A model generated the notes under the pieces. That model was not told the origin of the DNA and made no database searches. It was given only the letters and a program-made list of their open reading frames with translations. Below, piece by piece: positions 1 to 27,385 of a stretch of 64,000 nt of DNA; position 1 is the first letter of the stretch; each line of letters begins with the position of its first letter. The stretch comes from Candidatus Saccharimonadales bacterium (lineage in GTDB: Bacteria; Patescibacteriota; Saccharimonadia; Saccharimonadales; UBA4665). The stretch covers positions 7,717 to 71,716 of the forward strand of contig DASSHG010000009.1 of assembly GCA_035692985.1 (NCBI GenBank). Direction: 5' to 3'. The position numbers were made by a program, and so were the translations under genes.

Positions 1-405
1 AAAGCACTCAACGAAAAACTGCACCCTAACCTATTCCCCGGCCTCAATCCGGACAATTTACCCTATTTTGTGCCGATTGCTGCCGTGGCCCGCGGCCGCA
101 CCCTCATCCACGACTGGATGTACGAAAACCGTGCCATTTATTACACCGAGATGACCAAGGTCGGGGCTACTGTCGAGCTAGCGGATCCGCACCGCATCTA
201 CATTATCGGACCGACTAAGTTCAAAGCGGCCGACGTTGTCTGCCCACCGGCGCTGCGTCCCGCCAGCTTACTGCTAATCGGCATGCTCGCCGCCAAAGGC
301 ACCAGCATGCTGCGCAACGTCTACACTATCAATCGCGGCTATGAAGACCTGGCCGCTCGCCTCAACAGCCTCGGCGCCAAGATTACCGTATTGCACGAGA
401 TATAA
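1..405 (+). CDS. murA: UDP-N-acetylglucosamine 1-carboxyvinyltransferase, C-terminal part (5' end outside window)
   Basis: The frame is open from the window edge. The C-terminus ...CPPALRPASLLLIGMLAAKGTSMLRNVYTINRGYEDLAARLNSLGAKI is MurA-like. Stop TAA at 403-405. Confidence 0.85.
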   Translation, partial: KALNEKLHPNLFPGLNPDNLPYFVPIAAVARGRTLIHDWMYENRAIYYTEMTKVGATVELADPHRIYIIGPTKFKAADVVCPPALRPASLLLIGMLAAKGTSMLRNVYTINRGYEDLAARLNSLGAKITVLHEI

Positions 406-408
406 AGA

Positions 409-762
409 TTATGCGACCACTGGCTCTGCTGCCAGCTCACTGAAATATTCGCTGATTACTTCTGTCATGTGCTGGCTGGGAATAGCAACGTCTTTGCCAG
501 ACAGGTCTCTCATCATGCTTAAATTTCCTAAGGCTCTGCCCAGAGTTGCTACTCTCATATCAACAAACTGAGGATAATCTTCAGGTTTATGAGAATACGG
601 CCTCACCAGACCTAATGACAGCATGCCTGCGCCAACGTAGTTCCAGAAACGAAGCCCTTCAAGGCTACTAAAGCGAACGGCATCACCGAATGCCCATCTT
701 TCGTCATGCGTATCAAATCTCACTCGCGCTTTGTTACCCTCGTCAAGTGATTCGATATCCAT
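409..762 (-). CDS. hypothetical protein (117 aa), host-type composition
   Basis: ATG at 760-762, which is Met103 of the 409..1068 track ORF. Preceded by TGATATAAT plus 7 nt. The longer track version would cross attL into GC-rich foreign DNA. Confidence 0.5.
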   Translation of the reverse strand: MDIESLDEGNKARVRFDTHDERWAFGDAVRFSSLEGLRFWNYVGAGMLSLGLVRPYSHKPEDYPQFVDMRVATLGRALGNLSMMRDLSGKDVAIPSQHMTEVISEYFSELAAEPVVA

Positions 763-769
763 GACAATA

Positions 770-778
770 ATTATATCA
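770..778 (-). promoter_or_regulatory. extended -10 box (TGATATAAT) 7 nt upstream of ATG 762; leaderless-type promoter
   Basis: The reverse complement of 770-778 is TGATATAAT, the same 9-mer found at the tRNA and GGDEF promoters in this window. Confidence 0.45.
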
Positions 779-1173
779 TGCTGGTACCCCTCACGGGAGC
801 ACTTTCCAAAAACGGAACCGCCAATCAGCTCGCACGCCTGAACGCGCTCCGCAAGAAGCTGCTCCGGGAAGCCGCCAAAGCGCCCAAGCTTCCGACACCT
901 CCCCCACCACGCCGCATTGGCGAAATCTCCGGGGCCATCAACGAAGTCTTGACCAACGCGTGCGAGCCGCTGCATGCCGCCGAAATCCATCACGCAGTCG
1001 AGCGCCTGCTTGGCCGCTCCGTCAACTACCGCTCCGTCAAAGGCTGTCTGTCCGAGGGAGCGGCGCACCGCCCACCGCGATTTGAGCGCATCAGCTACGG
1101 GCGATACCGGCTAGCAGCAAACGCAGGACTGGCCTCGGCGAACCGCCGCCGAGATCGGGGGAGACAAACCTAG
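778..1173 (+). CDS. detached C-terminal segment of the split serine integrase (winged-helix, HARE-HTH-like pattern); expressed alone it would be 131 aa
   Basis: GC-rich third codon positions. ...EPLHAAEIHHAVERLLGRSVNYRSVKGCLSEGAAHRPPRFERISYGRYRL resembles a winged-helix pattern. The frame is in phase with the int ORF across the 9-bp repeat. ATG 778-780 lies in host DNA just outside the repeat. Confidence 0.55.
   Translation: MLVPLTGALSKNGTANQLARLNALRKKLLREAAKAPKLPTPPPPRRIGEISGAINEVLTNACEPLHAAEIHHAVERLLGRSVNYRSVKGCLSEGAAHRPPRFERISYGRYRLAANAGLASANRRRDRGRQT
782..790. repeat. attL core, direct repeat TGGTACCCC
   Basis: Identical 9-mer to 13121-13129. GC-rich DNA starts here. Confidence 0.7.
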
Positions 1174-2402
1174 AACGGAATATCCTGACTATCGTCTTCG
1201 TGTGCCTCAGCTCCGGCGCCGTCGTCTTGTGGAACCGTTTCAGAACCACCGTTGCCATCGCTCTCAAGCACCTCATCAGATTCCTGACCAAACAGAATTC
1301 GCAGCCGTCGCAATACCTCGTCATAGGTGATTACCGTCAAACTGAATAGCCCTTGTCGGAAATGGTTGAACGAGTCCTGCTGACGCTGATCAAGAGAGTC
1401 GAGCATTCCGCAGATGAGCACGCCCTTTGGATGCACGCGATTCAGCCCCGCGAAGCCGAGTCCAAGCGTATGACTGAAATTGTCAATGGCGACTGCTATC
1501 TGATTCCGCACTTGAACAATCCCACCCGAAAGATCGGCATGGATACTGTAGCTCTCATTTGGCAATCCAGAGCCAACATCTCCACGGTAGATCGAGCCGA
1601 CAAGCCCAGCCGACGGAGTCTTGATGTCCACTACAGAAAAGCTCTTGGTGCTTGCATCTGAGGCGAGAAAGTCCGTCGCCACACCACCTTTACCCTGACG
1701 CCCAAGCGGAAGCTTTCCCCCGAGATAAACCTCATCCCCAAGTATAAACACGGATGCTGAAAAGACTGCTTGGAGAATCCACGGATTACTAGAGAAGAAC
1801 TCGTGCCAGAAGGGCTCATCCCCCCGATGGCTTTGGAGGGCTGCTTCAAGCTCGTCTATGACAGCCTCACGATCAAGTTGTATCTTCGCAATCGCAAGAC
1901 GAGAAGCAAGGTCAGGGTCTTTTTCGGTCAGCGCCTTCCAAAACTCTTGCGAATAGCCATGATCCAGCATCTCTTGAATAGCCTGGGATTTGGTACTGTC
2001 GTCAACGATCAGCACCTCCTCCTTCTTTGCGACAACGAAGTTGGCGTCCCCGTATTGAACACCCTGCCCCTGGACGCGATATAGATGGGTCAGCTTCTCG
2101 AACAGCCGAGTCGTCGCCTCGGTGTCAAGCTCAATCGCCACACCACAGTCGGCAGGGACTTTGGTGAAGTTGACCTCATTCACATCCTTCCATGAACCGT
2201 CTTGGCCGATCTTTTGTCGGATGATTTCCCCTCGCACCCCGCCGGAATGAAGCCCAGGTCGAAACACCGTGCGAGTTCGAGCCGTGGTACTCAGCACGAT
2301 GTCATCCGCCGTGGCGTAACCACGCTTAACGTAGTGCGTCTTAATCTCGTCTGCCAAGTTACCTCCTAAGGTGAACGCGCCGGACAGCGGCCCGGCAGCC
2401 AC
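1170..2402 (-). CDS. sduA: Shedu-type defence nuclease SduA (DUF4263, PD-(D/E)xK)
   Basis: FWHEFFSSNPWILQ..., TDFL...SFSVVDIKTP (D...D-x-K), VQVRNQ, KGVLICG and a C-proximal VITYDEVL match the DUF4263 pattern from memory. Start is GTG 2402; an alternative TTG at 2357 follows GGAGGT. Confidence 0.7.
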   Translation of the reverse strand: MAAGPLSGAFTLGGNLADEIKTHYVKRGYATADDIVLSTTARTRTVFRPGLHSGGVRGEIIRQKIGQDGSWKDVNEVNFTKVPADCGVAIELDTEATTRLFEKLTHLYRVQGQGVQYGDANFVVAKKEEVLIVDDSTKSQAIQEMLDHGYSQEFWKALTEKDPDLASRLAIAKIQLDREAVIDELEAALQSHRGDEPFWHEFFSSNPWILQAVFSASVFILGDEVYLGGKLPLGRQGKGGVATDFLASDASTKSFSVVDIKTPSAGLVGSIYRGDVGSGLPNESYSIHADLSGGIVQVRNQIAVAIDNFSHTLGLGFAGLNRVHPKGVLICGMLDSLDQRQQDSFNHFRQGLFSLTVITYDEVLRRLRILFGQESDEVLESDGNGGSETVPQDDGAGAEAHEDDSQDIPF

Positions 2403-2482
2403 ACACGTAGTCTACGCCCAATGAGATAGTCGTGACAAGCGCTACACGGTCGGCCAGGCAGAGACGGCGTCGCTGCACCTAC

Positions 2483-2584
2483 CTAGCCACCAGCGCCTAT
2501 GCCAAAAAACACGGCAACGATCAGAACGAGTCCCGCAACAATGATGAAAACATTAATCGCCGTAGTATCAGCGAGAACGATCAC
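2483..2584 (-). CDS. 33-aa hydrophobic single-TM peptide (MIVLADTTAINVFIIVAGLVLIVAVFFGIGAGG)
   Basis: Below the ORF-track size cutoff. GTG start preceded by GGAAGGAGAA plus 6 nt. Lies 26 nt downstream of the 162-aa gene on the same strand. Confidence 0.4.
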   Translation of the reverse strand: MIVLADTTAINVFIIVAGLVLIVAVFFGIGAGG

Positions 2585-2610
2585 CTAGATTTCTCCTTCC
2601 TCGGGCGACT

Positions 2611-3099
2611 CTAGTCGATGATTGGCGTAAGCCACGCCGAAGCGTCGGAGAAATTGACGGGCTCAGTTCGAGAGTCAGCTCGTAGCTTGTTGAGGCGAAC
2701 ACGACGCTGGTTCTTGCCATCAAGATTGAAACGATCCTCAATGACCTCTCGCGTGGCTTTGAGGCCCTCGGTAATCTGGAAATCCTCATCGAAAAGAACC
2801 ACGACAACTGAGTCGTACTCGTCCTCGCTAATGGGCGATAAGACGGTGGGCGTGGAGTCCGGCGTTTCGCGACGGGACTTGACCTGGATTCGCTCGCCAG
2901 ACGGGGTCTTCACGTCCCATCCCTTCTGACTAAAGGAAGCCCGCTCGCCCTTGAAGTGGTCGCAGACAATCGCCTCAGCGATATCCCCCACAGGGTTATT
3001 ATTGGTGCGGATAACTCCGAGAGCACGAAGCTGGCGCATAATCGCAACCCAGTCGCTTAATAGCTCACATTTATCCTTGCTACTTGCGTCGTAGGCCAC
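2611..3099 (-). CDS. small PD-(D/E)xK-like nuclease-fold protein (162 aa), family not identified
   Basis: GDIAEAIV...KGWDV...RIQVKSRR reads as a D...(E/Q)xK-type motif. GTG start with GGTGGAG upstream. Confidence 0.5.
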   Translation of the reverse strand: MAYDASSKDKCELLSDWVAIMRQLRALGVIRTNNNPVGDIAEAIVCDHFKGERASFSQKGWDVKTPSGERIQVKSRRETPDSTPTVLSPISEDEYDSVVVVLFDEDFQITEGLKATREVIEDRFNLDGKNQRRVRLNKLRADSRTEPVNFSDASAWLTPIID

Positions 3100-3123
3100 G
3101 CCTTATCTGCTCCACCCCGACGG

Positions 3124-3294
3124 CTACGTCTTCGGACGTTCGCCAGCCTCTTCACGAAGCATTTCAATTTCCCGTCGCACTCCATTCAGTAAGTCCCAAG
3201 TGTACTCATCGTCTTCGGTCTTGATCTGAGCAGCAAGCTGACGGACAACCTCCTCAAGATTCCGCAGAGCGTTGAGTATCGTTGTTGAGGTCAT
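3124..3294 (-). CDS. 56-aa helical/charged small protein
   Basis: Translated by hand as MTSTTILNALRNLEEVVRQLAAQIKTEDDEYTWDLLNGVRREIEMLREEAGERPKT. Its ATG abuts the upstream stop (TAGATG). Below the ORF-track cutoff. Confidence 0.4.
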   Translation of the reverse strand: MTSTTILNALRNLEEVVRQLAAQIKTEDDEYTWDLLNGVRREIEMLREEAGERPKT

Positions 3295-3693
3295 CTAGCC
3301 CTGGTTTTCGTCTGCGAGCTGGCGTGCAGTAAGCCCAACTACGAGGGCAAGGAAGGCAGCTGCATCAGCTTGCCTCTCAGCCGCTGCCACGACCGATCCA
3401 GTGGCCTCGCCCTCTGGTACCTGTAAATGCAAGGGAATTGCAGCACGATGCGCTTCCATGCCTTCCCAAAAAGCTCGCTGCGCATCATCACCCATACCGA
3501 CCGATTCCCGAAGGGCTCGTAGCTGATCGGTCGTTTTCTCGCCGCCCGTGAAGCTCTGCTCGATCGCTTCACGCACCGTGATCTCACCGGCCTCGGCTTG
3601 CGCCAAAAGCTCGTCGCTAACTGGCTCAAGCGTCACGAAGTCTCCCCAGCGTCTGAACGCCTCTCTGACCTCCTCTGGGCCGATCTCCGCCAC
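3295..3693 (-). CDS. hypothetical protein (132 aa)
   Basis: GC-rich ORF with a GTG start. It is the second gene of a same-strand operon. No recognisable motif. Confidence 0.55.
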   Translation of the reverse strand: MAEIGPEEVREAFRRWGDFVTLEPVSDELLAQAEAGEITVREAIEQSFTGGEKTTDQLRALRESVGMGDDAQRAFWEGMEAHRAAIPLHLQVPEGEATGSVVAAAERQADAAAFLALVVGLTARQLADENQG

Positions 3694-3717
3694 CGAGCGA
3701 AGCCTACCGCCTGTCCG

Positions 3718-4050
3718 CTAGCTCCTGACGATCTGCGAAACGCGCTGATGGCTCATGCCCATCACCTGGGCGATGGCCTTCATCGGCAGACCGTCCTTGT
3801 AGGCGGCGCGAACGGCTTCGTCCCGCTCCTCGCGGAGCCGCTCGGCCGCCTTCTCCAGCTCGCCTTGACGACGGGCATAGTCCTTGGCAAAGGCCTTTAG
3901 GCGGGTTTTGGCCTGCGGTGCATGGCGTTTGGGACGGGCGATACAGAGGATGCTCTGCGGTATTCCTGCTAGTCGGTTAGCATGAAGTCCTACGCAGGGA
4001 GAGGCGGCCGCCTCATCCGACCTCGATTCACAAGGAGGCGTCGTTGCCAA
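3718..4050 (-). CDS. helix-turn-helix DNA-binding protein (sigma-70 region-4-like C-terminus); start uncertain
   Basis: The C-terminus is DGLPMKAIAQVMGMSHQRVSQIVRS. The only in-frame start candidates are TTG 4050, a TTG near 4110 and ATG 4221. The longest version overlaps the well-supported gene at 4044. Confidence 0.5.
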   Translation of the reverse strand: MATTPPCESRSDEAAASPCVGLHANRLAGIPQSILCIARPKRHAPQAKTRLKAFAKDYARRQGELEKAAERLREERDEAVRAAYKDGLPMKAIAQVMGMSHQRVSQIVRS

Positions 4051-4889
4051 GCCGAGTCCGACTTTCCACCAGCCGCGTGGCAGTTCTGATCGGAGCCGTC
4101 CTCTTGCTCCTGCCCACGTCAACGCTTGCAGCCAGCGCCGGGGGCAAGCACCGTCGTCACGCTCATCCCCAGGTGTCCTGGACGCTGCCGCATGTAGTGA
4201 GCGAAGGCCAAACGATTCCATTTACCTGGAAGGCCACCGGCCACCTTGGCCCCAACTACCGCCTCGTCGTCCAGCGGCCGGTGGGTACCGCCCATACCTG
4301 GAAAACCATGCTGAGACTGAAAACCCGTAAGGGCTCAGCCGAGCTGCCAGGACAAAAGCTTGGCACCTACCGCTTCCGACTGGCAGCGCTCCGAGGACAC
4401 CTGGTGCTGGCCCAGAAAGTCCTCGGCATCGATGCGTTCGGTCAAGTGCCGTTCTCGGTGCTGCTGCGCAATGGCTACCTGACTACTGGACACCTGGAAA
4501 ACGGCGTCTATGCCACGCCATCAAGCAGCTTTCCCTATGTCGGGGGAGCCTACGTTGGAGACCATGGACGACCGAACACGGTCTTTTCGGTGAACCACAA
4601 CCGGTGCTCGGCAGTCCACGTTGGCTTCGTGCTCGGTGAAACGCCCGGCGAAGGCTATAGCTACCCCGCATCAATCTACGGTGTCGTTACGCTGGTACAG
4701 CAGTCCCGTGATCCGGTTGCATCGGAAGTGCCCTTCAATGGCATCGGCTCGGTAGACGCGGAACTTGTGCCTGGTCAGACCTGGTCCCTGCTGGTTGAAG
4801 AAAACAACCGGGAAGGCAAGCTAGGGTCGCCGACCGTCTACTTCAATGGCTACGCCATCTGCGACAGCACGGAATCGTTCTTCTCGTAA
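4044..4889 (+). CDS. secreted hypothetical protein (281 aa)
   Basis: TTG start 5 nt after AAGGAGG. Signal-peptide-like N-terminus RVAVLIGAVLLLLPTSTLAASA. Confidence 0.6.
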   Translation: MPSRVRLSTSRVAVLIGAVLLLLPTSTLAASAGGKHRRHAHPQVSWTLPHVVSEGQTIPFTWKATGHLGPNYRLVVQRPVGTAHTWKTMLRLKTRKGSAELPGQKLGTYRFRLAALRGHLVLAQKVLGIDAFGQVPFSVLLRNGYLTTGHLENGVYATPSSSFPYVGGAYVGDHGRPNTVFSVNHNRCSAVHVGFVLGETPGEGYSYPASIYGVVTLVQQSRDPVASEVPFNGIGSVDAELVPGQTWSLLVEENNREGKLGSPTVYFNGYAICDSTESFFS

Positions 4890-4955
4890 AGCGCCAGGGT
4901 GGAGCGGGCGTCTCAACTTCGTTGATACTCCGATCTGTGCATACTTCACCCTCTA

Positions 4956-5738
4956 ATGGCGGACGGAGCGAATAGAGCCGCAGAACTGCTTCAGCAAGCC
5001 TATGCGAGCGGAGAGCTTTCTGAGGAGTCCTCACAGGCTCTGATCGCGGCTGGAGACGTTGGTCGGGAGGTCGGCTACGCGCTCGGTGGGGGCGGCCACG
5101 GTGACGAATTGTTGCTTGTCACTATCCTTGCCGACGATTCAGGGTCTATCTCAGTCATTCCGGGCGGTGCGGAGGCGGTTCGCCAGGGTCACAACCACTG
5201 CCTTGACGCGCTCGACACCGAACAGGGAGCCGAAGCGCTCGTCCACACGCGCTATCTGAATGCCGGCAGCTTGTCCCCCTATCGAGGTCTAGCTACTGCC
5301 ACGCGCCTTAGCGCCGAGAACTTTAATCCCGTAGCCGGTCATACGCCGCTCTACAGGCAATCCGTTCTCACGCTAGGTGCCGTCATGGCGAAGGTTCAAG
5401 AGCAGAAGGCCGAGGGGCGGCTTGTCAGGGCTTTCACGCTCATCATTACCGACGGCGGCGACAATGCATCGGGCCAGGTAAGCGCCCAGCATGTGAACTT
5501 CCTCGTCCGCGACATGCTGGACTTCTCAGACGATTACATCGTCGCCGGTATGGGCATCGGTCAACGCGCCACATTCCAGCCCATCTTTCGCGCGATGGGA
5601 ATCCCGGAGGGTTGGATTCTCACCGCCGATGCCTTGCCAGAGGAGATAAGCAAGCTGTTCCGCAAAATCGCGCAATCCCTCCAGCTTGCGGCAAGCGGCG
5701 AGGCTGGCTGGCTTCAACTGGAGGCCGGACCGCCCTGA
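4956..5738 (+). CDS. von Willebrand factor A (vWA) domain protein with intact MIDAS
   Basis: LLLVTILADDSGSIS (DxSxS), GHTPLY (Thr) and LIITDGGDN (Asp) are arranged as in vWA domains. Confidence 0.7.
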   Translation: MADGANRAAELLQQAYASGELSEESSQALIAAGDVGREVGYALGGGGHGDELLLVTILADDSGSISVIPGGAEAVRQGHNHCLDALDTEQGAEALVHTRYLNAGSLSPYRGLATATRLSAENFNPVAGHTPLYRQSVLTLGAVMAKVQEQKAEGRLVRAFTLIITDGGDNASGQVSAQHVNFLVRDMLDFSDDYIVAGMGIGQRATFQPIFRAMGIPEGWILTADALPEEISKLFRKIAQSLQLAASGEAGWLQLEAGPP

Positions 5739-6094
5739 GATGGTGGCGATTGACGCCCATCGCCGGTTTCCTCCTCCTGTGGCCAGCAGCGAGCCAGCTC
5801 CTGGTCGGCATCCGGACCGGCATAAATGCCAAGACCGGGCTTGTGGGCTAATGGCCGCTCTTCGTCCAAGTCGAAAGCGTGGCCAGTGTAGACATTTTTC
5901 GAACCAAAGAAGTTTTCGACACTGTCAATTCGCGATAGGTGGGTCGCATCTGCTCGATCTTCCTGATTTTCTAAAAAGACAAAGCCCTTCGCCGCATATT
6001 CCGGCCAATTGTCTTCGGTAATAATGTCACGCCGTACCCGCACGAAGTTGGGGTCGCTATCAGCGGTTGGCTGCTGGGCTGAGGATTCACTCAT
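5714..6094 (-). CDS. hypothetical protein (126 aa)
   Basis: ORF with an ATG start. It converges on, and overlaps, the vWA gene by 25 nt. It diverges from the J-domain gene across an AT-rich ~65-nt spacer. Confidence 0.45.
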   Translation of the reverse strand: MSESSAQQPTADSDPNFVRVRRDIITEDNWPEYAAKGFVFLENQEDRADATHLSRIDSVENFFGSKNVYTGHAFDLDEERPLAHKPGLGIYAGPDADQELARCWPQEEETGDGRQSPPSQGGPASS

Positions 6095-6159
6095 ATATTA
6101 CATCCTGTTTACATACCCAGCGTACGCCCCCCTCCCGTGTAAGTCCAGAGGGTGATGCA

Positions 6160-6924
6160 ATGCCCGACGATGCATCACTGGACTTCTTCAAGCTGCTTGG
6201 GGTCGGGCGCGATGCCTCCGACCAAGAAATCAAGAAAGCGCACAAACGGCTGGTCCGGAAGTACCACTCAGATACTGGCGGCGCGACAGCGAACGACGAG
6301 AAGTTCATGAAAATACAGGCGGCATATGAGACGCTTAAAGATCCCTACAAGCGAGCAGAACACGAAGCCGAGCTAGGAAAACAGGAGCAAGCGAAGATGC
6401 GTCGCCGCGAGCAAGCACGGCGGCGCCGAGCCCGCGCCCCAACGGAAGACGCGACGAATATCTTCGGGGAACACATCCGTGATTCCCACTCCAATACTGG
6501 ACCGGGCGTGTCGTCTCGGCCACCACACGCCGCGAGCCCACCCCCAAGAGCATCACCAGCCCCTCCGCCGCCAGGCTCTACCAACCGGCCGAAGCCGTCA
6601 CCGACCCCAGCGCCATCTTACCCGCCTCCGATGAGATGGTACGAGTATTTCCTCGCGGATTCCGTATCCGGAAAACTCCTCGCGCTGTTCGCATCAGCGG
6701 GACTGACGACTGCGGTCATTCTCATCCCCCATGCGGTGGCTACCGGCATAGAAGCGGGGGCATCTCAAGATCACAATTTTCTCGCGGCGCTTGTACTTCT
6801 CGCGGCCGGGCTCGCGGGCGGTATCGGGGGAATCTTTGGAATACTCCTGACGGCATACTGTTTCTTCTCCCTTATCGCTGTGACCCTACGGGAGATAGGC
6901 AGCGCCTTGCGTCAGACGCCGTAA
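6160..6924 (+). CDS. J-domain membrane protein with HSD in place of HPD
   Basis: LDFFKLLGVGRDASDQEIKKAHKRLVRKYHSDTGG...KIQAAYETLKDPYKRAEHE is a J domain. A Pro-rich linker and 2-3 C-terminal TM helices follow. ATG 6160 is Met32 of the track ORF. Confidence 0.7.
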   Translation: MPDDASLDFFKLLGVGRDASDQEIKKAHKRLVRKYHSDTGGATANDEKFMKIQAAYETLKDPYKRAEHEAELGKQEQAKMRRREQARRRRARAPTEDATNIFGEHIRDSHSNTGPGVSSRPPHAASPPPRASPAPPPPGSTNRPKPSPTPAPSYPPPMRWYEYFLADSVSGKLLALFASAGLTTAVILIPHAVATGIEAGASQDHNFLAALVLLAAGLAGGIGGIFGILLTAYCFFSLIAVTLREIGSALRQTP

Positions 6925-7952
6925 GTGTCGGCCTCCTCACCGGATAGTCGATAGAAGTCCGCCACCCGATACCAGTCCTCATCAATGAGGCCGATGAATT
7001 CATCGGCTGCTCGTTGCCAACGGTGGTAATCGCAGTCGCACTCTCCGCCGTCCGGCTCTAGGCAGTTCGCCCACCGGAGCCATACCCCCATCAGCTCTTG
7101 GCGTCGCTCACCAGCCTCGACCAAGAGATTTCCAAAGCCGTCCAACTCCTCATGCGGCGCATCAGCCAGCAACGTCCGGAGCCAGGAGCTGTCGGTCTCG
7201 CCTAGCGGCGCAAGAAGCTGGAGCTGGTAAATAGCGTCGGCCGCGGCGATCTCGCAGTCCATCTCCGCCAGCAGCCACAGGCCGCCTTGCTCATCCACGA
7301 AACGCTGCAAGGCCAGCTCAAACCTAGCCCACTGCCAGGTGATGTTGGCCAGGCGGTCAGAGACGGCGTGCCGGTCCTCCTCCTCGGCCGCCAGGTATCC
7401 CCTGAGCACCACCAGGTCATTTCTCATGCCAGCTACCGGTGTCCAGATGCGCCGGTAGCTACGGTGTTGCTCCAGCCAGTCGATGCCCAGGCCGGACTGC
7501 TCCGGCGTGCGCTCGGCTTCCATTCGGTGCCGGTGTCGCAAGCGGTAAGCGCTGTCAGCCGCACACAACTCGTCGGCAACCGCTTCGAGCAGCAATGGCT
7601 CGCGCTCCTTGCGGAAATGTTCCTGCGAGACGTGCAGGGCTCCGGCGGCTTGCCGTCGCCGCTCCTTGAGCAAGGAGCCACGAGTACCCGTAGCCAGGCC
7701 CAGCAAGATAGAGGCTGGCCCATTGCTACCGCCATCCAACCGCTGCGCGGCCTCCACGATCAGGGTATGGGCAGCCACCGCGAGATCGGTGTCTTGCTCG
7801 CTAGCTGACTTAGCTTTCACGAGCGCCAAGCCCAGGACCGTCGAGCAGGCCCGTAGGCCCTCGGTCGTGACGCCGCCGCGCAGCAAGTCTCCCAGCTCAG
7901 CGGCCAGCTCATCAGGTGACGGGATAGCTGCCTCGTTCATCAAGTTCCCCAC
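6912..7952 (-). CDS. hypothetical protein (346 aa; start GTG 7952 or ATG 7940)
   Basis: Long GC-rich ORF with a Cys/His-containing C-terminal part (CLEPDGGECDCDYH). No family recognised. Confidence 0.6.
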   Translation of the reverse strand: MGNLMNEAAIPSPDELAAELGDLLRGGVTTEGLRACSTVLGLALVKAKSASEQDTDLAVAAHTLIVEAAQRLDGGSNGPASILLGLATGTRGSLLKERRRQAAGALHVSQEHFRKEREPLLLEAVADELCAADSAYRLRHRHRMEAERTPEQSGLGIDWLEQHRSYRRIWTPVAGMRNDLVVLRGYLAAEEEDRHAVSDRLANITWQWARFELALQRFVDEQGGLWLLAEMDCEIAAADAIYQLQLLAPLGETDSSWLRTLLADAPHEELDGFGNLLVEAGERRQELMGVWLRWANCLEPDGGECDCDYHRWQRAADEFIGLIDEDWYRVADFYRLSGEEADTYGV

Positions 7953-8316
7953 TAAAGCACCGGGAAGCCCCCACTTGCTTCCTCGACGATGCGGTCGTGA
8001 ACAAACCGACCGTCTTTCTCATCGTCGCCATCGTAACCCTGAGCTTCTTGGTCTCGGCTGGACCGGCGCTGGTGGCTCTCGCTAACGCTGCCGTTCCACT
8101 CGTCCTGGTCGTCGGCGTGGTGGTCGTGGCGCTACGGCTCGTCTTTTTCCACACCCGACGCTGGTGATGGCAGGTGGAGATTTCAAGTTGTGCATTCCAC
8201 GCCTTGACCGGCCAACTGAAGCAGGCGGACAATGGAGGGTTACGTCTGAACCTGAGTTCCTCGCCCTCATCCCCGAAAACGTGACCTTCAAGAACTAAAT
8301 GAAGGGAGGTATCACC

Positions 8317-8469
8317 ATGCCAAGAAAACGAAAACCGACCAGGCAGGTCCGGGTCCGCGACATACCGCTGTCTGAGATTGACGAGACGAAGGTCGCCCTG
8401 GCGTTCTGGCTGATGGCCAAGCGCCTCATTGACGAACAGGACGCCGAAAGCGAATCGGTAGCGCCGTGA
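8317..8469 (+). CDS. 50-aa basic/acidic small protein, first gene of the transfer operon
   Basis: GAAGGGAGG lies 7 nt before the ATG. Its stop overlaps the next start (GTGA). Sequence MPRKRKPTRQVRVRDIPLSEIDETKVALAFWLMAKRLIDEQDAESESVAP. Confidence 0.45.
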   Translation: MPRKRKPTRQVRVRDIPLSEIDETKVALAFWLMAKRLIDEQDAESESVAP

Positions 8470-10547
8470 CCCACAAGAAGCTGGACTGGTTTCAGCTTCA
8501 GTTTCCGCAGGGAGTTGAGACAGACCACCTGCTGGCTGGCCTGTCGTCGTTCTCCGGCGTCCCGTTCCGCGCCCGCATCGTCCTCGACCTGACCGCCACG
8601 GCGGAAGGCATCAAGCACTTGCTGGGCGTAACGCCCAAAGACACCGGCACCGTCACCGCCGCGCTGCGCGCCGCCATGCCGAGTCTGCGCCTGGCTCACG
8701 TCGAAGCGCCACCGCGCCCACCACGCCGCTGGCTGTGGCAGACAGCGCCCCGCGTCGCCAGCCTGCGTAGTGAGGAGCCAATCGCCATTGCCGCCGCTCT
8801 CTTGTCCAGCCTGTTCCCGCTGGACGGTGATGAGGCTGTCCGTCTCACCTGGACGCTGCGCTCCTGGCCACGGCCGCCGTTGCCAGTCGGCCGCTATGAC
8901 GCCCAGGACGGACGAGAAAGGGTAGTGCGCGCCAAGCTGAGCCTGCCGGGCCTTGCCGCCTACGGCGAGCTGTCAACTGTCGCCAAAACGCCAGCCCGCC
9001 GTGCCGAGCTGACTCAGCGCACCGCCTCGGCCCTATGGAGCCTCAGCACTCCCTTTGGTCGCTTGGCCGTTGACCCATACTGGCTCGGACAAGTAGCCCG
9101 CCTGCTTGGCCTGCGCGGCCGTTACCTGAGCGCTCCAGAGCTGGCCGCCGTCATCGGCTGGCCGGTCGGCAGTCCCGACCTACCAGGCCTGGAGCTGGGC
9201 GCGGCCAAGCGGCTGGTGCCCGCCGCCAGCCTGCCCGAAGACGGCCGGGTTCTCGGTGTAAGCGACTTCGCCGGAATCACCCGACCGGTTGCTATCTCCG
9301 CCACCGCCTCGACGCGCGGGCTGTACGTCCTCGGCCCCACCGGCACCGGTAAGACCAATCTACTCAAGAACCTCATCCGCGATGACCTCGAGCAGGGCCG
9401 GGGCCTGGTGGTCGTGGAGACCAACGGCGATCTCATCCAAGAGCTGTGCGATGTCATCCCGCCGGAGCGTGTGAATGACGTAGTGCTGCTCGACCCGACC
9501 GACCGCGACAGCGCCGTCGGCTTCAACCCCCTCGCCAGCGGTTCCGAGCCCTCCCTGATCGCCGACCAGCTCTCTGAGCTGTTCCAGCGGCTCTGGGAGG
9601 CGTTCTGGGGACCGCGCACCGCCCAGCTGACCCACATGGGCTTGCTAACCCTGGCGCGCCGTCCTGGTTCCACGCTACTCGACCTGCCGCGCCTCTACCT
9701 TGACTCCGCTTTCCGCGAGAAGGTGTTGGCCGACCTGGACGATCCTCTCGGCCTCGGCCCGGACTGGCAGTGGTTCGAGAACCTGCCGACCCGCGAACAG
9801 GCCAACGTCGTCGCCCCCCTGCTCAACAAGGTGCGCGCCTTCACCGCGCGTCCGGCCATCCGCGCCATCGTCGGCCAGCCGAAGCCGCGCCTCACCATGC
9901 ACCAGATCATCGAGCAGAAAAAGGTGCTGCTCGTCCACCTGCCAAAGGGCCTGATCGGCTCCGAGACCGCACAACTGCTCGGCTGTCTCGTCCTCACAGC
10001 CGTTTGGCAGGCCGCCGCCGAACGGGCCGCCTTGCCGCCGAGCCAGCGCCACCCGGTCTCGCTCTACGTCGATGAGGTACAGGACTTCGCCTCGGCCCCG
10101 GTGCCCTGGGACGAGATGTTCGCCCAGGGGCGCAAGTACGGGCTGGCTCTGACCGCCGCCCATCAGAACCTTGAGCAACTGCCGAAGGAGCTGAGGGAGG
10201 TTGTGCTGGCCAATGCCCGTTCAAAGGCGGTGTTCGCCCTCAGCGCCACGGACGCGAGGACTATGGAGCGGCTGTTTGAGCCCGCCCTGACAGCCGCCGA
10301 CCTGCAAGCCCTTGACGCTTACTCGGTCGCCGCCCTGGTGGCACTGGACAATGGCAGCGCCGCCCGGCCGGTGACGCTGACCACGCCGCCGCCCGTGAAG
10401 TCACTGGGCAGCAGGGCGCAGGTCCGCGCGACCTCGCACCAACATTACGCCCGCCCGCGAGCTGAGATCGAGGCCGAACTGCGCCGAGGCGTAACTCCAA
10501 GGCGACCCAAAACGCCAGTCGGCCGCAAGCCCCGGAGGGCGTCATGA
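8466..10547 (+). CDS. TraD/VirD4-family (type IV secretion DNA-transfer) P-loop ATPase without N-terminal TM
   Basis: Walker A GPTGTGKT and Walker B LYVDEVQDF. The C-terminal FAQGRKYGLALTAAHQNLEQL resembles the TraD/TraG coupling-protein module. Confidence 0.7.
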   Translation: MTHKKLDWFQLQFPQGVETDHLLAGLSSFSGVPFRARIVLDLTATAEGIKHLLGVTPKDTGTVTAALRAAMPSLRLAHVEAPPRPPRRWLWQTAPRVASLRSEEPIAIAAALLSSLFPLDGDEAVRLTWTLRSWPRPPLPVGRYDAQDGRERVVRAKLSLPGLAAYGELSTVAKTPARRAELTQRTASALWSLSTPFGRLAVDPYWLGQVARLLGLRGRYLSAPELAAVIGWPVGSPDLPGLELGAAKRLVPAASLPEDGRVLGVSDFAGITRPVAISATASTRGLYVLGPTGTGKTNLLKNLIRDDLEQGRGLVVVETNGDLIQELCDVIPPERVNDVVLLDPTDRDSAVGFNPLASGSEPSLIADQLSELFQRLWEAFWGPRTAQLTHMGLLTLARRPGSTLLDLPRLYLDSAFREKVLADLDDPLGLGPDWQWFENLPTREQANVVAPLLNKVRAFTARPAIRAIVGQPKPRLTMHQIIEQKKVLLVHLPKGLIGSETAQLLGCLVLTAVWQAAAERAALPPSQRHPVSLYVDEVQDFASAPVPWDEMFAQGRKYGLALTAAHQNLEQLPKELREVVLANARSKAVFALSATDARTMERLFEPALTAADLQALDAYSVAALVALDNGSAARPVTLTTPPPVKSLGSRAQVRATSHQHYARPRAEIEAELRRGVTPRRPKTPVGRKPRRAS

Positions 10548-10663
10548 GCGCGCCGCTCGCCCGTCCGGTCGCGTCGAGCAGACCGCCGCTCATTCCAGCT
10601 CTCAAAGCCCCAACCCGGCCCATTTCGCTAACGACTGATTACGGAAAACGAGGTTGGCAATGA
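10544..10663 (+). CDS. possible 39-aa Pro/Arg-rich micro-ORF
   Basis: ATGA overlaps at both ends (10544-10547 and 10660-10663), with CGGAGGG upstream. Its composition could equally be GC-rich noise. Confidence 0.3.
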   Translation: MSAPLARPVASSRPPLIPALKAPTRPISLTTDYGKRGWQ

Positions 10664-11478
10664 GCGCCCGCTACGTCACGGCAGCGGCACTGCGGAAGCT
10701 GGCCGCCCAGCTCACCGAGCGGGACCACGAACTCGTCCAGACGGTCTGCGTCCTGCGCTTCGTGTCCGGCTCCCAGCTTCAACGGATGCACTTCACGGAC
10801 GCCGAAGGCGACGACGCCAACGCCCGCACCGCTCGCCGGGCTCTACTGCGCCTCGTCAGCCTGGGCGTGCTGGAGCGTCTGCCACGCCAGGTCGGAGGCG
10901 TCCGCGCCGGGAGTGCTGGATTCGTCTACCGGCTTGGCCGTGCCGGTCAGCGCCTGGCCGTCGAGCGGGGCTGGTCGTCGAACAGCCGCCGCCAGTGGCA
11001 GTCGCACGTACCGGGCAGGTTGTTCCTCGACCACGCCCTCCAGGTTGCTGAACTGCACACGCTGATCGTGGAAGCCGACCGCGCCGGGCTGGTCGAGTTG
11101 CTGTGGCTGGAGGCAGAGCCCGCCTGCTGGCGGTCCTACGGCCAGCGCGCCACTCTCAAGCCGGACAGCCATGTCCGGCTGGGCATCGGTGACTACGAGG
11201 ACAGCTACATGATTGAGGTGGACATGGGAACCGAGAGCAGCCGGACGCTGGAGCGCAAGCTGGGCGACTACCTGACCTACGAAGCCAGCGGGCGCGAGCA
11301 GGCCGAGCACGGCGTCTTCCCCAAGACGCTCTGGCTGGTGCCGGACGCAGAGCGGGCGAGGGTCATCGAGAGCTGCATCGAGCGGCTGCCGCGCTCAGCG
11401 CATCGGCTGTTCGCCGTCAACCAGTTCAAGGACGTGATCGCGGCCGTCGCGACCCCTGAACCAGCGGACAAAGGCTAG
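10660..11478 (+). CDS. replication-relaxation (Replic_Relax-like) family protein
   Basis: RRALLRLVSLGVLERLPRQVGGVRAGSAGFVYRLGRAGQRL (wHTH) and KPDSHVRL...YMIEVDMGTES...LERKLGDY match my recollection of the family. ATG 10660 follows ACGAGG. Confidence 0.65.
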   Translation: MSARYVTAAALRKLAAQLTERDHELVQTVCVLRFVSGSQLQRMHFTDAEGDDANARTARRALLRLVSLGVLERLPRQVGGVRAGSAGFVYRLGRAGQRLAVERGWSSNSRRQWQSHVPGRLFLDHALQVAELHTLIVEADRAGLVELLWLEAEPACWRSYGQRATLKPDSHVRLGIGDYEDSYMIEVDMGTESSRTLERKLGDYLTYEASGREQAEHGVFPKTLWLVPDAERARVIESCIERLPRSAHRLFAVNQFKDVIAAVATPEPADKG

Positions 11479-11526
11479 GAACGACTTGTTCCTGCAAGTA
11501 AAATAGAAGGAATAGAGAGGAGGGAT

Positions 11527-13329
11527 ATGAACCAAGAACAACCAACTAAACGCGCCGTCATCTACCTGCGCGTGTCGTCGGCCCAGCAGGCCGACAAGGA
11601 CTTCGACGCCGAGGGCTTCTCCATCCCCGGCCAACGCGAAGCCTGCACCCGCGAGGCCGACAAGCTCGGCGCTGAGATAGCTGATGAATACATCGACCGG
11701 GGCGAGTCCGCCAAGACCGCCCGCCGACCGGCGCTCCGGGCAATGCTCGACCGACTAGGGCGCAGCGACATTGACTACGTGATCGTCCACAAGGTGGACC
11801 GCCTGGCAAGGAACCGCGCCGACGACATCGAGATCGTCATGACCATCCGCAAAGCCGGAGCCCAGCTCGTCTCCGTCACCGAGAACATCGACGAGACGCC
11901 CTCGGGCCTGCTGATGCACGGCATCATGTCGTCAATCGCCGAGTTCTACAGCCGCAACCTGGCGGCTGAGGTCATGAAGGGGACGACGCAGAAGGCCAAG
12001 AGCGGGGGCACGCCGTTCCGTGCACCGGTCGGCTATCTGCACGACCGCCTGACGGTCGATGGCCGCGAGGTCCGCACCGTGGTTCTCGACCCGGAGCGCG
12101 CCCCGTTGATCCGCGAAGCCTTCAAGCTCTACACCACCGGCGACTACTCGCTTGCCGAGCTGGCGGCGATCATGGAGGAACGCGGCCTGCGCTCCCGCCC
12201 GACCCGCAAGTACTCGTCCCGCGCCCTCAAAGTCAAGGATCTGCACGCCATCCTGCGCAACTCCTACTACGTAGGCGTCGTCACCTACAACGGCAAGACC
12301 TATCCCGGTCGACACGAGCCGCTGGTGGACGAGGCGACGTTTGAGGAAGTTGGGGAGCTACTGACTTCCAAGCGCGTCAGCGGCGAACGCCCCTGGCGGC
12401 ACTTCCACTACCTGCGCGGTTCCATTTACTGCGGCGAGTGCCGCCGACGCCTGATCTACAGCCGCGCCAAAGGCAAGGGCGGCGAGTACGAGTACTTCGT
12501 CTGCGGGGGTCGCCAGCACGGCAACTGCAAACAGCGCAGCCACCGCGTGGAAGCAGTCGAGGCAGCCGTAGAGAACGCCTACGCCGACAAGGAGCTGAAC
12601 GACGAGCAGCGCGAGAAAGTCCGGCAGGCGATCCAGTCTCAGGTAGACGCCCTGACGCTCTTGTCCGCCGAGAAGGTGGCCGAGGGCGAAACGAAACTCG
12701 CCGAGCTTGAGAGGCAGGAACGGAAGCTCCTGACCGCCCACTACGCCGACCAGATATCCGAGGCGCTGTTCGCCGAGGAGCAGAAACGGATCAAACGGGA
12801 GCGCGTCGGTGCCGAAAAGCGCATCGACAGCCTGAGCGTCGATCACGAACAAGCCATGCAGACGCTCGACCTGGCACTCGCCCTGACGGACGACACCCAG
12901 CGGGCCTATCTGCAAGCTGGGCCGCAAGAACGGCGGCTACTGAACCAGGGGCTCTCAGACCGATTCGAGATACGGGACGAGGAAGTCGTCTGCGACCACC
13001 GAGCCGAGCCCTTCGGCCAGCTCCGCAAGCTCGGCAAGGGCTGGGACGGCAGCGAAGCCGCCACCAAAGCCAAAACCCTCGCCTCTGCTGAGAGAGACGA
13101 GGGTTTGAACGTCGCAAGCTTGGTACCCCGGGTAGGATTCGAACCTACGACCTATGGGTTAGAACTCCATTGCTCTATCCAGCTGAGCTACCGGGGCTTG
13201 GGGTGTTACGTGGTGCGGGATGGCGGAATCGAACCGCCAGCTCTAGCTTGGAAGGCTAGCGTATTAGCCGTTATACAAATCCCGCATAACAGAGGTGATT
13301 ATATCATACATGCTACAATCACAGCATGA
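11527..13329 (+). CDS. large serine recombinase (integrase); the last ~70 codons are read antisense through host tRNA genes
   Basis: AVIYLRVSSAQQ (catalytic Ser), VHKVDRLARN, a recombinase domain, the zinc ribbon CGECRRRL...FVCGG...GNC and a coiled coil. There is no stop before the att core at 13121. Stop TGA 13327-13329 lies in host DNA. Confidence 0.85.
   Translation: MNQEQPTKRAVIYLRVSSAQQADKDFDAEGFSIPGQREACTREADKLGAEIADEYIDRGESAKTARRPALRAMLDRLGRSDIDYVIVHKVDRLARNRADDIEIVMTIRKAGAQLVSVTENIDETPSGLLMHGIMSSIAEFYSRNLAAEVMKGTTQKAKSGGTPFRAPVGYLHDRLTVDGREVRTVVLDPERAPLIREAFKLYTTGDYSLAELAAIMEERGLRSRPTRKYSSRALKVKDLHAILRNSYYVGVVTYNGKTYPGRHEPLVDEATFEEVGELLTSKRVSGERPWRHFHYLRGSIYCGECRRRLIYSRAKGKGGEYEYFVCGGRQHGNCKQRSHRVEAVEAAVENAYADKELNDEQREKVRQAIQSQVDALTLLSAEKVAEGETKLAELERQERKLLTAHYADQISEALFAEEQKRIKRERVGAEKRIDSLSVDHEQAMQTLDLALALTDDTQRAYLQAGPQERRLLNQGLSDRFEIRDEEVVCDHRAEPFGQLRKLGKGWDGSEAATKAKTLASAERDEGLNVASLVPRVGFEPTTYGLELHCSIQLSYRGLGCYVVRDGGIEPPALAWKASVLAVIQIPHNRGDYIIHATITA
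13073..13106. repeat. perfect 9-bp inverted repeat (AAACCCTCG N16 CGAGGGTTT) 14 nt from the att core
   Basis: Seen directly. It lies inside the int ORF. It could be part of an att arm or a hairpin terminating the tRNA transcript. Confidence 0.5.
13121..13129. repeat. attR core, direct repeat TGGTACCCC (reverse complement of the tRNA-Arg 3' end GGGGTACCA)
   Basis: Identical to 782-790. GC-rich DNA ends here. Confidence 0.7.
13121..13197 (-). tRNA. tRNA-Arg (anticodon TCT), CCA encoded
   Basis: Hand-folded cloverleaf GCCCCGG/TA/GCTC..GAGC/ATGGA-GTTCTAA-CCCAT/AGGTC/GTAGG-TTCGAAT-CCTAC/CCGGGGT-ACCA. It has an A31-C39 mismatch and a G1-U72 pair. Confidence 0.85.
13211..13285 (-). tRNA. tRNA-Gly (anticodon TCC), CCA encoded
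   Basis: GCGGGAT..CTAGC-CTTCCAA-GCTAG..GGCGG-TTCGATT-CCGCC-ATCCCGC-ACCA. Confidence 0.9.
13289..13306 (-). promoter_or_regulatory. tRNA-Gly/Arg promoter: TGATATAATCACCTCTGT, ending 3 nt before the mature tRNA 5' end
   Basis: The 15-nt TATAATCACCTCTGT is identical at 16274-16288 (+) and 19513-19527 (-). Confidence 0.6.
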
Positions 13330-13553
13330 TAAGTGACTTTGCTTTCCTGGGCTTCGGCCCACTTATGAGCACAGTGGTCATCTTGGTTTTGCTGATTATT
13401 TTCGCGTTTGAAATTTGGATGTTCGTCAGCGCTATCACCAATAAAGTCATTGCCGGTACCGCCAAAATCTGGTGGATCGTGGGGATGGTGCTGATACACC
13501 CAATCGTGGCCATTATCTATTACTTTACCGACTATAAAAAAGAAGGCAGATAA
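13326..13553 (+). CDS. small membrane protein, PLD-nuclease N-terminal (PLDc_N)-like
   Basis: Two TM helices. ...FEIWMFVSAI...AKIWWIVGMVLIHPIVAIIYYF resembles the PLDc_N pattern. TGCTACAAT lies 6 nt before the ATG. Confidence 0.5.
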   Translation: MISDFAFLGFGPLMSTVVILVLLIIFAFEIWMFVSAITNKVIAGTAKIWWIVGMVLIHPIVAIIYYFTDYKKEGR

Positions 13554-13819
13554 TGGCCGCTCAACGATCCGACCCAGATAAAATTACCGAGATATCCACC
13601 GAGGCTCTGCACAGGCTGATCCAACAGCGGGACAGCGCCTTTAAGCGCCTGCCCCTCCTCTTTACTTTGCTGGGCGCATTCGGGCTAATGGCAACGTTTT
13701 ACGGATTCCAGCACATCATTAATAAGATTCCCGTACTGGCTGACAACCCCCTAATCACTCTCTGCGTAGGTTTGTTAACCCTTCTATTGACGGGTACTTT
13801 ATACAAGAAACTTGGCTGA
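13553..13819 (+). CDS. hypothetical membrane protein (88 aa)
   Basis: TAATG overlap with the upstream gene. Two predicted TM helices. Confidence 0.45.
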   Translation: MAAQRSDPDKITEISTEALHRLIQQRDSAFKRLPLLFTLLGAFGLMATFYGFQHIINKIPVLADNPLITLCVGLLTLLLTGTLYKKLG

Positions 13820-13900
13820 TGGTAAACCTGTTGTTCTGCGTTATTGCTTCTTAAAGGTGTCTGCTATATGCTGAGGATAGATTAAGCGTAAGGATTATCC

Positions 13901-14440: not shown

Positions 14441-14441
14441 T

Positions 14442-15886: not shown

Positions 15887-15992
15887 CACGGCGTGATTAA
15901 TATCGCTTGTGTTTTTATATTTTAGGCAGATAATGAGAAATGTGCTAGAACACAAAAATTCTGGCATGATAAATACACAAAGGTGAAACCAA

Positions 15993-27373: not shown

Positions 27374-27385
27374 GGAATACCAATA

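Follow-up and report, generated by a model that had tools for sequence, protein, structure and literature searches.

Positions 791-13120 of the 64,000-nt stretch analysed here (the window; Candidatus Saccharimonadales bacterium, assembly GCA_035692985.1, contig DASSHG010000009.1, positions 7,717-71,716) very probably constitute an integrative and presumably mobilizable element, a member of a modular family found mainly in high-GC soil Actinomycetota (Solirubrobacterales). A large serine recombinase (LSR) would have inserted it at a Saccharimonadales tRNA-Arg gene using an attachment site (attP) that lies within the open reading frame (ORF) of the LSR itself. The comparisons below show, as far as sequence allows, a site-specific insertion that leaves the tRNA whole, defence cargo on a modular backbone, relatives of the Solirubrobacterales type and an attP in the LSR ORF. 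The boundaries and target are as follows.

782-790: attL core, the left copy of TGGTACCCC; island DNA begins inside or just past this core.
13121-13129: attR core, the right copy of TGGTACCCC, antisense to the tRNA-Arg 3' end GGGGTACCA.
13121-13197, minus strand: tRNA-Arg(TCT), intact, the integration target (B' arm of attB); found by ARAGORN (Rfam: 64.1 bits).
13211-13285, minus strand: tRNA-Gly(TCC), upstream partner of tRNA-Arg (ARAGORN and Rfam).

The initial annotation had described the element as bounded by a direct repeat of the tRNA-Arg 3' end. TGGTACCCC does occur exactly twice in the 64 kb (chance expectation 0.23 copies; at least two copies in 2 of 100 shuffles) and, because ARAGORN and Rfam place tRNA-Arg(TCT) at 13121-13197, the right copy is the reverse complement of the last nine bases of this tRNA. 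No further tRNA-Arg fragments are found in positions 1-16000. An element abutting an intact tRNA, with a repeat of the tRNA end at its far boundary, has the layout of a tRNA-inserted genomic island, and the genes of the island are missing from 80 related loci. In one related genome (L054), tRNA-Arg(TCT) is uninterrupted, has the same 3' end and is identical to that of the window at 76 of 77 positions. An independent check of the boundaries is provided by a related element, L081. The blastn homology between the two starts at 784 and ends at 13145, inside the tRNA. The two junctions of the L081 element have only GTAC in common, whereas those of the window have 9 bp, which fits a serine-recombinase 2-bp crossover within an attP/attB identity extended by chance. 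The crossover is predicted to lie, and likely does, inside GTAC at 13123-13126, and the 9-bp repeat should not be taken for a staggered-cut duplication.

Deletion of the element in silico gives the product ...GGGGTACCA-GCA-TGATATAAT-TATTGTC-ATG, in which the tRNA-Arg CCA end lies 3 nt from the TGATATAAT-N7-ATG promoter, exactly as had been described. The predicted empty site reads ...CCCGGGGTACCAGCATGATATAAT... and the predicted circle junction reads ...CGCAAGCT-TGGTACCCC-TCACGGGAGC... One further feature of attR was observed by eye. Its element-side arm GGTTTGAAC (13102-13110) is a 7/9 inverted match to the tRNA T-loop GGTTCGAAT (13135-13145), and the two are equidistant from the GT at 13123-13124, making attR a quasi-palindrome.

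Base composition breaks abruptly at the two repeats, as the initial annotation had noted. The GC content is 51.6% at 1-781, 62.0% at 791-13120 and 51.6% at 13130-64000; in 100-bp windows, the step at the left end is 0.45 to 0.62, and the right end shows a fall through 0.68, 0.54 and 0.42. Third-codon-position GC (GC3) is 81-86% in the three mobility genes and 57-65% in host genes. The tetranucleotide distance from the host profile is 30-48 in every 2-kb island window, compared to 18.5 +/- 2.9 (maximum 24.8) in host windows. By segment, island GC is 55.9% (791-3250), 60.8% (3251-8250) and 66.2% (8251-13120), so the first of these, which holds the Shedu-to-3.3-kb cargo, is indeed intermediate in composition. 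Although the GC content of the Shedu segment (54-56%) is near that of the host, this segment is also distant from it in tetranucleotides.

The backbone of the element comprises the following genes, together with small ORFs. Identities are to the corresponding proteins of L081.

778-1173, plus strand: winged-helix (HARE-HTH-like) ORF (Pfam HARE-HTH E-value: 2.6e-4, below the cut-off; 77% identity).
3718-4221, minus strand: gene with a C-terminal sigma-70 region 4-type helix-turn-helix (HTH) (Pfam Sigma70_r4 E-value: 2e-5; 72% identity).
4044-4889, plus strand: 281-aa protein with a signal-peptide-like N-terminus (no family match; 89% identity).
8466-10547, plus strand: type IV coupling-protein-like ATPase, 693 aa (Pfam TrwB_AAD_bind, PF10412, E-value: 9.2e-10, 38.4 bits against a cut-off of 20.5; 86% identity).
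10654-11478, plus strand: Replic_Relax protein, MOBC relaxase class (Pfam PF13814 E-value: 1e-31; 76% identity).
11527-13329, plus strand: LSR (Pfam Resolvase, PF00239, E-value: 5.7e-34; Recombinase, PF07508, E-value: 2e-14; Zn_ribbon_recom, PF13408, E-value: 1.7e-9; 89% identity).

The domain order of the last protein (Resolvase, Recombinase, zinc ribbon) is that of large serine recombinases, and its catalytic serine motif, VIYLRVSSAQQ at residues 11-21, was located by eye from the known YxRVSS motif. Conserved protein is coded up to position 13119, with no stop codon before the crossover. In the integrated form, the ORF continues for 69 more codons in antisense through tRNA-Arg and tRNA-Gly (...SLVP, then RVGFEPTTYGLELH...) to a stop at 13329. 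The same arrangement is seen in the family at large: 108-109 of the 120 best LSR homologues have an antisense-tRNA peptide of the G[FLIV]EP type right after a ...GGLNVxSLV motif (for example, SLVPLRGFEPRFPD and MVELAGLEPATSWVRS). Another conserved motif, L-x-G-x-L-S-N, takes its place in seven of the 120, and this motif matches the window immediately to the right of the left repeat (LVPLTGALSKNG...). As these seven tails match the coding sequence on the attL side of the window, they represent attP-form, unintegrated copies; in L084, the attP form lies on contiguous DNA. Relatives in this form in metagenomes (P0005, P0108 and others) suggest that free forms of such elements may occur.

When the two ends of the window element are joined in silico, the LSR and ORF 778-1173 form a single unbroken ORF of 661 aa. 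The L081 junction is also in frame between the LSR and the winged-helix ORF. P0108 and P0112 provide a before-and-after pair: they are 82% identical up to SLVR and unrelated beyond it, where P0108 (674 aa, on contiguous DNA, L082) runs into a winged-helix domain and P0112 runs into antisense tRNA. In two partial genes, P0179 and P0229, an LSR C-terminus likewise runs into a winged-helix domain. With attP inside the ORF and different C-termini in the free and integrated forms, the LSR gene has the features of a putative integration-dependent gene switch.

Within the window element and within that of L081, no ATG, GTG or TTG precedes the helix that is conserved at the N-terminus of the winged-helix protein. 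The ATG at 778 listed for the ORF is host DNA, and in the family alignment conservation begins exactly at the junction. The AlphaFold2 model (pLDDT 88.3) consists of a long helix joined through a proline-rich linker to a winged helix, in which helices at 45-58, 65-76 and 82-94 and strands at 100-104 and 107-110 give a three-helix bundle with a beta-hairpin wing. The best Foldseek matches are the Rok DNA-binding domain, ZBP1 Z-alpha and the Fur/PadR winged helices, with weak E-values (2e-3 or higher) and target TM-scores of up to 0.87. The gathering score of HARE-HTH (PF05066) is not reached by ORF 778-1173 (21.8 bits against a cut-off of 25.9); this domain is detected at E-values of 0.01 or lower in 4 of 22 winged-helix relatives (best E-value: 3.8e-6). 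A PDB sequence search with the winged-helix profile returned nothing meaningful. Two relatives were observed to have unusual sequence upstream of this ORF. In P0217, an antisense-tRNA peptide lies about 40 residues upstream of the winged-helix start, suggesting a tRNA fragment left of attL, and in P0149 a host hydrolase ORF reads straight into the winged-helix ORF.

The chances are close to even that the position of the attachment site alone accounts for the missing stop codon and the in-frame winged-helix ORF, both being by-products that play no part in regulation. The tails would then be neutral and the winged-helix protein would be made alone, from an (A/T/G)TG codon at the core. Past the crossover, the tails are indeed dictated by the tRNA of the host. 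The CA of CCA reads TG in antisense, which makes the junction codon NTG, so that a start codon for the winged-helix ORF would arise with most host flanks; at attL of the window (778-786), the junction codon is CTG and is preceded by the in-frame host ATG at 778. Two more findings favour this view: the attP-form LSR of P0005 (L084) stops 25 codons past the core with no winged-helix gene, and most of the 533 winged-helix homologues are called as stand-alone ORFs of approximately 110 aa that start at the junction (such as MPLLGAL.. and MVRLLGA..). The by-product explanation is in turn opposed by the continuity of the frame in lineages that are only 48% identical (the window, L081, P0108, P0179 and P0229), by the missing start codons in the window and L081 and by the onset of peptide conservation exactly at the junction.

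A wider interpretation is possible but doubtful. In this interpretation, an undescribed large clade of serine integrases targets tRNA 3' ends, carries attP in its own ORF and uses recombination as a built-in state switch that biases integration over excision without a classical recombination directionality factor (RDF), and the same family moves between Solirubrobacterales and Saccharimonadales. The free element would make an integrase whose C-terminus is encoded by the element (a winged-helix DNA-binding domain in some lineages), and the integrated element a truncated integrase with a junk tail. If this is true, the element family could mark host-epibiont pairs in soil.

The relatives of the element are the basis for assigning it to an actinobacterial family. 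L081 is on a 504-kb contig and has the same backbone in the same order. The two DNAs align in four blocks (80-88% identity; 88% for block 3716-4891) between which lie two unrelated cargo slots (window 1116-3715 and 4892-8095). The L081 element is at the 3' end of a tRNA-Glu(CTC), its flanks are approximately 70% GC, and the GreA encoded there is 86-88% identical to proteins that are named Solirubrobacterales in 8 of 9 named matches. The LSR closest to that of the window (P0001, L083; 90% identity) is at the 3' end of a tRNA-Arg(TCT) in an organism of 70-75% GC. Its junction reads TTTGGTACCCCCGGCAGGATTCGAACC, compared to TTGGTACCCCGGGTAGGATTCGAACC in the window, so that the two phyla offer nearly the same target on its tRNA side. 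This near-identity explains how the integrase could use a Saccharimonadales site. L093, with a flank of approximately 75% GC, has a similar ATPase (84% identity) and relaxase (73% identity) and an LSR that is only 39% identical (13072-14896, at a tRNA-Ser(TGA)), indicating that integrase modules are swapped between backbones. The L093 LSR ORF likewise reads into the tRNA in antisense; this integrase was observed to have the same stop-less design as the window LSR.

Together, the flanks of L081, L083 and L093 are 70-77% GC. Named LSR relatives are all from Solirubrobacterales or Solirubrobacteraceae, as are three of the four named ATPase relatives from outside the Saccharimonadales genome. The proposal that the mobility genes are of actinobacterial type is thus upheld. 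The flanks had been assigned to a Saccharibacteria-type genome from the candidate phyla radiation (CPR), and this is equally clear: the window starts in a truncated MurA whose C-terminus has 69-93% identity to that of 80 Saccharibacteria/Saccharimonadales loci from metagenome-assembled genomes (MAGs), gene order between 14 and 22 kb is collinear with that of related Saccharimonadales genomes, and the window ATPase is deposited at NCBI as HET7060203.1 from a Candidatus Saccharimon... MAG (276,746-bp contig). Encoded in the remainder of the window are RNase Y, PilB/PilC, ComEC, DnaK, LepA and FtsH. Homologues of the island proteins are absent from all 80 related Saccharimonadales loci. The same contig encodes, outside the window, a second ATPase (HET7060269.1, P0306; 73% identity, 66 accession numbers away). 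Two diverged ATPases on one contig imply that this genome took up the family at least twice, and HET7060269.1 points to a second, diverged element.

It is improbable that the family is native to Saccharimonadales or other CPR bacteria, with the actinobacterial copies as spill-over by reverse transfer. The presence of two diverged ATPase copies (100% and 73% identity) on one contig would suit such an origin, as would an element GC (approximately 62-64%) that fits neither host type. The element is approximately 60-66% GC in both, a composition of its own and not a copy of a donor genome. A CPR origin is contradicted by the lack of island genes in the 80 Saccharimonadales loci, by the high-GC, Solirubrobacterales or Chloroflexota genomes in which all other located or named relatives reside, and by a mobility-gene GC3 (81-86%) that is far from that of the host (57-65%). 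Transfer from Actinomycetota to Saccharimonadales is the more probable direction. The initial annotation had gone further and proposed transfer from a host to its epibiont. The two ends of this proposal stand, given the Saccharimonadales flanks and the high-GC relatives. With one relative labelled Chloroflexota and the element GC alike in both host types, direct transfer along such a route is no more than plausible.

The gene content of the island bears on how it might move. Its kit (LSR, Replic_Relax protein and TrwB/TraD-like ATPase) had been described as one for self-mobility. These proteins and Shedu are all confirmed. In the CONJscan scheme, Replic_Relax corresponds to the MOBC class of relaxases (PMC5357655), with a PD-(D/E)XK fold (PMC3424549), and the ATPase has a Walker A (GPTGTGKT) and Walker B (LYVDE) motif of the P-loop TrwB/TraG type, with weak matches to TraD/VirD4 NCBIfam models. 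A search of plasmids with the ATPase (tblastn) gave distant matches only (38% identity or less, the best in Streptomyces and Embleya). Self-transfer, by contrast, is unsupported: no VirB4-type, VirB6, FtsK-like translocase or replication gene is found with Pfam and NCBIfam in island ORFs of at least 95 aa. The element thus lacks the VirB4-type ATPase and mating-pore proteins of a self-transmissible integrative and conjugative element (ICE) that transfers by type IV secretion. Having its own integrase, relaxase and coupling-like ATPase and no mating-pore genes, it is best classified as an integrative mobilizable element (IME).

The lack of transfer genes is one of several points that count against the main interpretation. 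The PF10412 match of the ATPase covers profile positions 7-111 only and is therefore a partial coupling-protein match, and a crude test for a membrane anchor (a 20-residue window with at least 15 hydrophobic residues) was negative. The empty-site pattern (tRNA end, N0-12, TGATATAAT) has no match in genome contigs, and the circular-junction (attP) pattern of this exact element has none in viral contigs. The DNA past the tRNA is not conserved among related genomes, which accounts for the failure to find the exact empty site. One close ATPase relative is labelled Chloroflexota. Finally, the nearest relative is only 80-88% identical in nucleotides, so the actual donor is not identified; a metagenome scan with the LSR added only 8 loci, mostly short.

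It is highly improbable that the island is a prophage remnant or a classical actinomycete integrative and conjugative element (AICE) of the pSAM2/SLP1 type, despite a size of approximately 12 kb and a 3'-tRNA site that resemble those of AICEs and satellites (PMC2440964). The scanned island ORFs include no capsid, portal, terminase or tail gene of a prophage, nor the FtsK/SpoIIIE TraB, RepSA/RepAM/Prim-Pol gene or tyrosine integrase of an AICE. Without phage structural, VirB4/FtsK-type or replication-initiator genes, the kit is that of an IME and not of a prophage, AICE or self-transmissible ICE. An assembly or binning chimera that joins an actinobacterial fragment to Saccharimonadales DNA at a conserved tRNA is the least credible explanation of all: tRNA T-arms are conserved between phyla and the source is a MAG, yet the block continues into Saccharimonadales DNA on either side within a single contig, a perfect 9-bp repeat is present at the junctions, the tRNA-Arg belongs to the Saccharimonadales type (76/77 identity to L054) and differs from the tRNAs beside L081 and L083, and the LSR tail is unique to the window junction.

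The model proposed for the integrated element, as reconstructed from its anatomy and its relatives, is as follows. The backbone consists of the winged-helix ORF, the HTH gene, the secreted protein, small ORFs, the coupling-like ATPase, the MOBC relaxase and the LSR, with two variable slots. The circular form would encode a 661-aa LSR fused to the winged-helix domain, with attP inside the 3' end of the recombinase gene. This element would pass from an actinomycetote to a Saccharimonadales cell, with two candidate routes: a type IV secretion system could mobilize it, or the ComEC and type IV pilus machinery of the recipient could take it up. The LSR would then recombine attP with the extreme 3' end of the chromosomal tRNA-Arg(TCT), and the tRNA stays intact. 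In the integrated form, the LSR carries a junk antisense-tRNA tail and the winged-helix ORF is detached from it.

The two variable slots hold the following genes.

1170-2402, minus strand, slot 1: Shedu nuclease SduA (Pfam SduA_N E-value: 7.6e-11, SduA_C E-value: 7.6e-17; PADLOC PDLC00399 SduA E-value: 4.5e-49 over residues 19-370).
2611-3099, minus strand, slot 1: DUF6998 or type II methyl-directed restriction enzyme-like protein (Pfam DUF6998 E-value: 8.6e-11; PADLOC mREase_II E-value: 4.5e-25).
3295-3693, minus strand, slot 1: hypothetical protein, no family match.
4956-7952, slot 2: four ORFs at 4956-5738 (plus strand), 5714-6094 (minus), 6067-6924 (plus) and 6912-7952 (minus), not common with L081.

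The first of these proteins has the DUF4263 nuclease domain that defines Shedu, and its gene is not in L081. With Shedu and a methyl-directed restriction enzyme in slot 1, the element is a mobile defence island. In slot 2, ORF 6067-6924 encodes a DnaJ domain and a hydrophobic C-terminus. The backbone ORFs between the slots, 3718-4221 (minus strand) and 4044-4889 (plus strand), are both conserved and were observed to overlap by 178 bp on opposite strands, with only the plus-strand gene annotated in L081. Because of this overlap, the HTH gene probably starts downstream of its listed ATG.

A 14-bp hairpin is conserved at the right end of the element.

13073-13106, minus strand: hairpin inside the 3' coding end of the LSR (97% of cells paired, 4 compensatory pairs in 5 elements).

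It folds with a dG of -33.5 kcal/mol (z -3.5). On the tRNA-sense strand, it lies 14 nt past the tRNA-Arg CCA and is followed by U-GGCUUUGG. A simple terminator scan did not call it. This hairpin is possibly a terminator supplied by the element to the tRNA operon, or else a part of the attP architecture.

The surrounding locus is itself unusual. Comparison of window 406-13320 with L047, L054, L058, L008 and L010 gives a gene order of murA, tRNA-Gly and tRNA-Arg in related Saccharimonadales, all on the plus strand; in the window, both tRNAs were observed on the minus strand. Compared with the conserved gene order, the block from ORF 409-762 through the island to tRNA-Arg and tRNA-Gly therefore has the opposite orientation. 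A search of the window showed no inverted repeats at the ends of this segment. The block begins with an orphan gene.

409-762, minus strand: 117-aa ORF between murA and the island (GC3 0.44, compared to 0.57-0.65 in host genes).

This ORF has no family match and no homologue in the 80 related loci, and may be the remnant of an earlier insertion at a tRNA hot spot. The tRNA-Gly/tRNA-Arg locus is a variable hot spot across Saccharimonadales. In L001, L002 and L016, 2-3 kb are inserted between tRNA-Gly(TCC) and tRNA-Arg(TCT), and these tRNAs are rearranged in L003 and L013. Elsewhere in the host part of the window (25568-28654 and 40722-42197), a PilB-type ATPase (T2SSE; E-value: 1.5e-129), PilC (T2SSF) and ComEC (Competence; E-value: 1e-30) are encoded. 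This DNA-uptake machinery could be an entry route for foreign DNA.

There are few base-pair-level records of intact mobile elements shared between CPR bacteria and other phyla at 76-90% protein identity. For soil Saccharimonadales, whose hosts are for the most part unknown, this element family is a testable link to Solirubrobacterales; it also indicates that CPR genomes are able to acquire defence islands from other phyla. A relaxase and coupling-type ATPase brought into such a genome bear on whether patescibacterial type IV machinery can move DNA. The consistent tRNA-end design of the 120 best LSR homologues, with attP in the integrase ORF, is relevant to directionality control. It is also of interest to genome engineering, where toolkits want compact att sites in conserved targets.

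Parts of this picture have precedents. CPR bacteria are known to have genomic islands and phage links across phyla (PMC12455944, PMC10746230), and cultivated Saccharibacteria live on Actinomycetota (PMC10746230). The conjugation-related type IV secretion clusters of Patescibacteria are mostly without relaxases (bioRxiv 10.1101/2025.01.22.634366). Neither this element family in CPR genomes nor an LSR family with an ORF spanning attP at tRNA ends was found described in a non-exhaustive literature search.

In gene content, the window element resembles those IMEs catalogued in streptococci whose relaxase is of the MOBC class (Replic_Relax, PF13814; Coluzzi et al. 2017, PMC5357655). The two are alike in recombinase, relaxase class, coupling-like ATPase, cargo and the lack of mating-pore genes. 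The window family differs in that its hosts are Actinomycetota and a CPR bacterium, in that the tRNA 3' end is reached by an LSR and in that no membrane anchor is obvious in its ATPase; neither an oriT nor a helper element is known for it. AICEs, including a Mycobacterium group with serine recombinases at tRNA-Leu (Ghinet et al. 2011, PMC3218068), are likewise 10-17 kb elements of Actinomycetota at tRNA 3' ends. The window element has a relaxase and coupling-like ATPase instead of their FtsK-like TraB or Rep, and an LSR ORF crossing attP is not described for AICEs. Integration at tRNAs by serine recombinases was considered rare by Ghinet et al. (2011), who cite the Mycobacterium tRNA-Leu group and phage phiRSM1 (PMC3218068), and according to Islander (2014; PMC4383910), tRNA genes were not among the known targets of serine integrases. 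The serine integrases of phages phiC31, Bxb1, A118 and SPbeta have the same Resolvase-Recombinase-zinc-ribbon order, and the window LSR probably resembles them in its short att sites and in needing only a few bp of attP/attB identity (GTAC in L081). Unlike the LSR of the window, they use protein-coding or intergenic sites, have their own stop codon and are served by a separate RDF; no RDF was identified here.

The Prochlorococcus tycheposons also carry cargo and integrate site-specifically, and 27 of 937 have an LSR in place of the tyrosine recombinase (bioRxiv 10.1101/2020.12.28.424599). Their lineage and kit are unrelated, with replication genes and no relaxase/ATPase pair, and an ORF-spanning attP is not reported for them. 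As for the cargo, the protein encoded at 1170-2402 has both SduA_N and SduA_C and a full-length PADLOC SduA match, and so is predicted to be a Shedu (SduA, DUF4263) defence protein like those known; it differs in being the cargo of an element in a CPR genome. The closest analogue of the split ORF is the integration-dependent immunity of BPs, Brujita and the M. abscessus prophages (Broussard et al. 2013; PMC4557955, PMC8092301), in which attP likewise lies in coding sequence, attB is a tRNA 3' end and the C-termini are specific to each form. In those mycobacteriophages, a repressor is split by a tyrosine recombinase, whereas here the serine recombinase itself is split and loses a winged-helix domain. 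The window element would thus add to these systems an element common to an actinobacterial order and a CPR lineage, and an integrase predicted to rewrite its own C-terminus upon integration.

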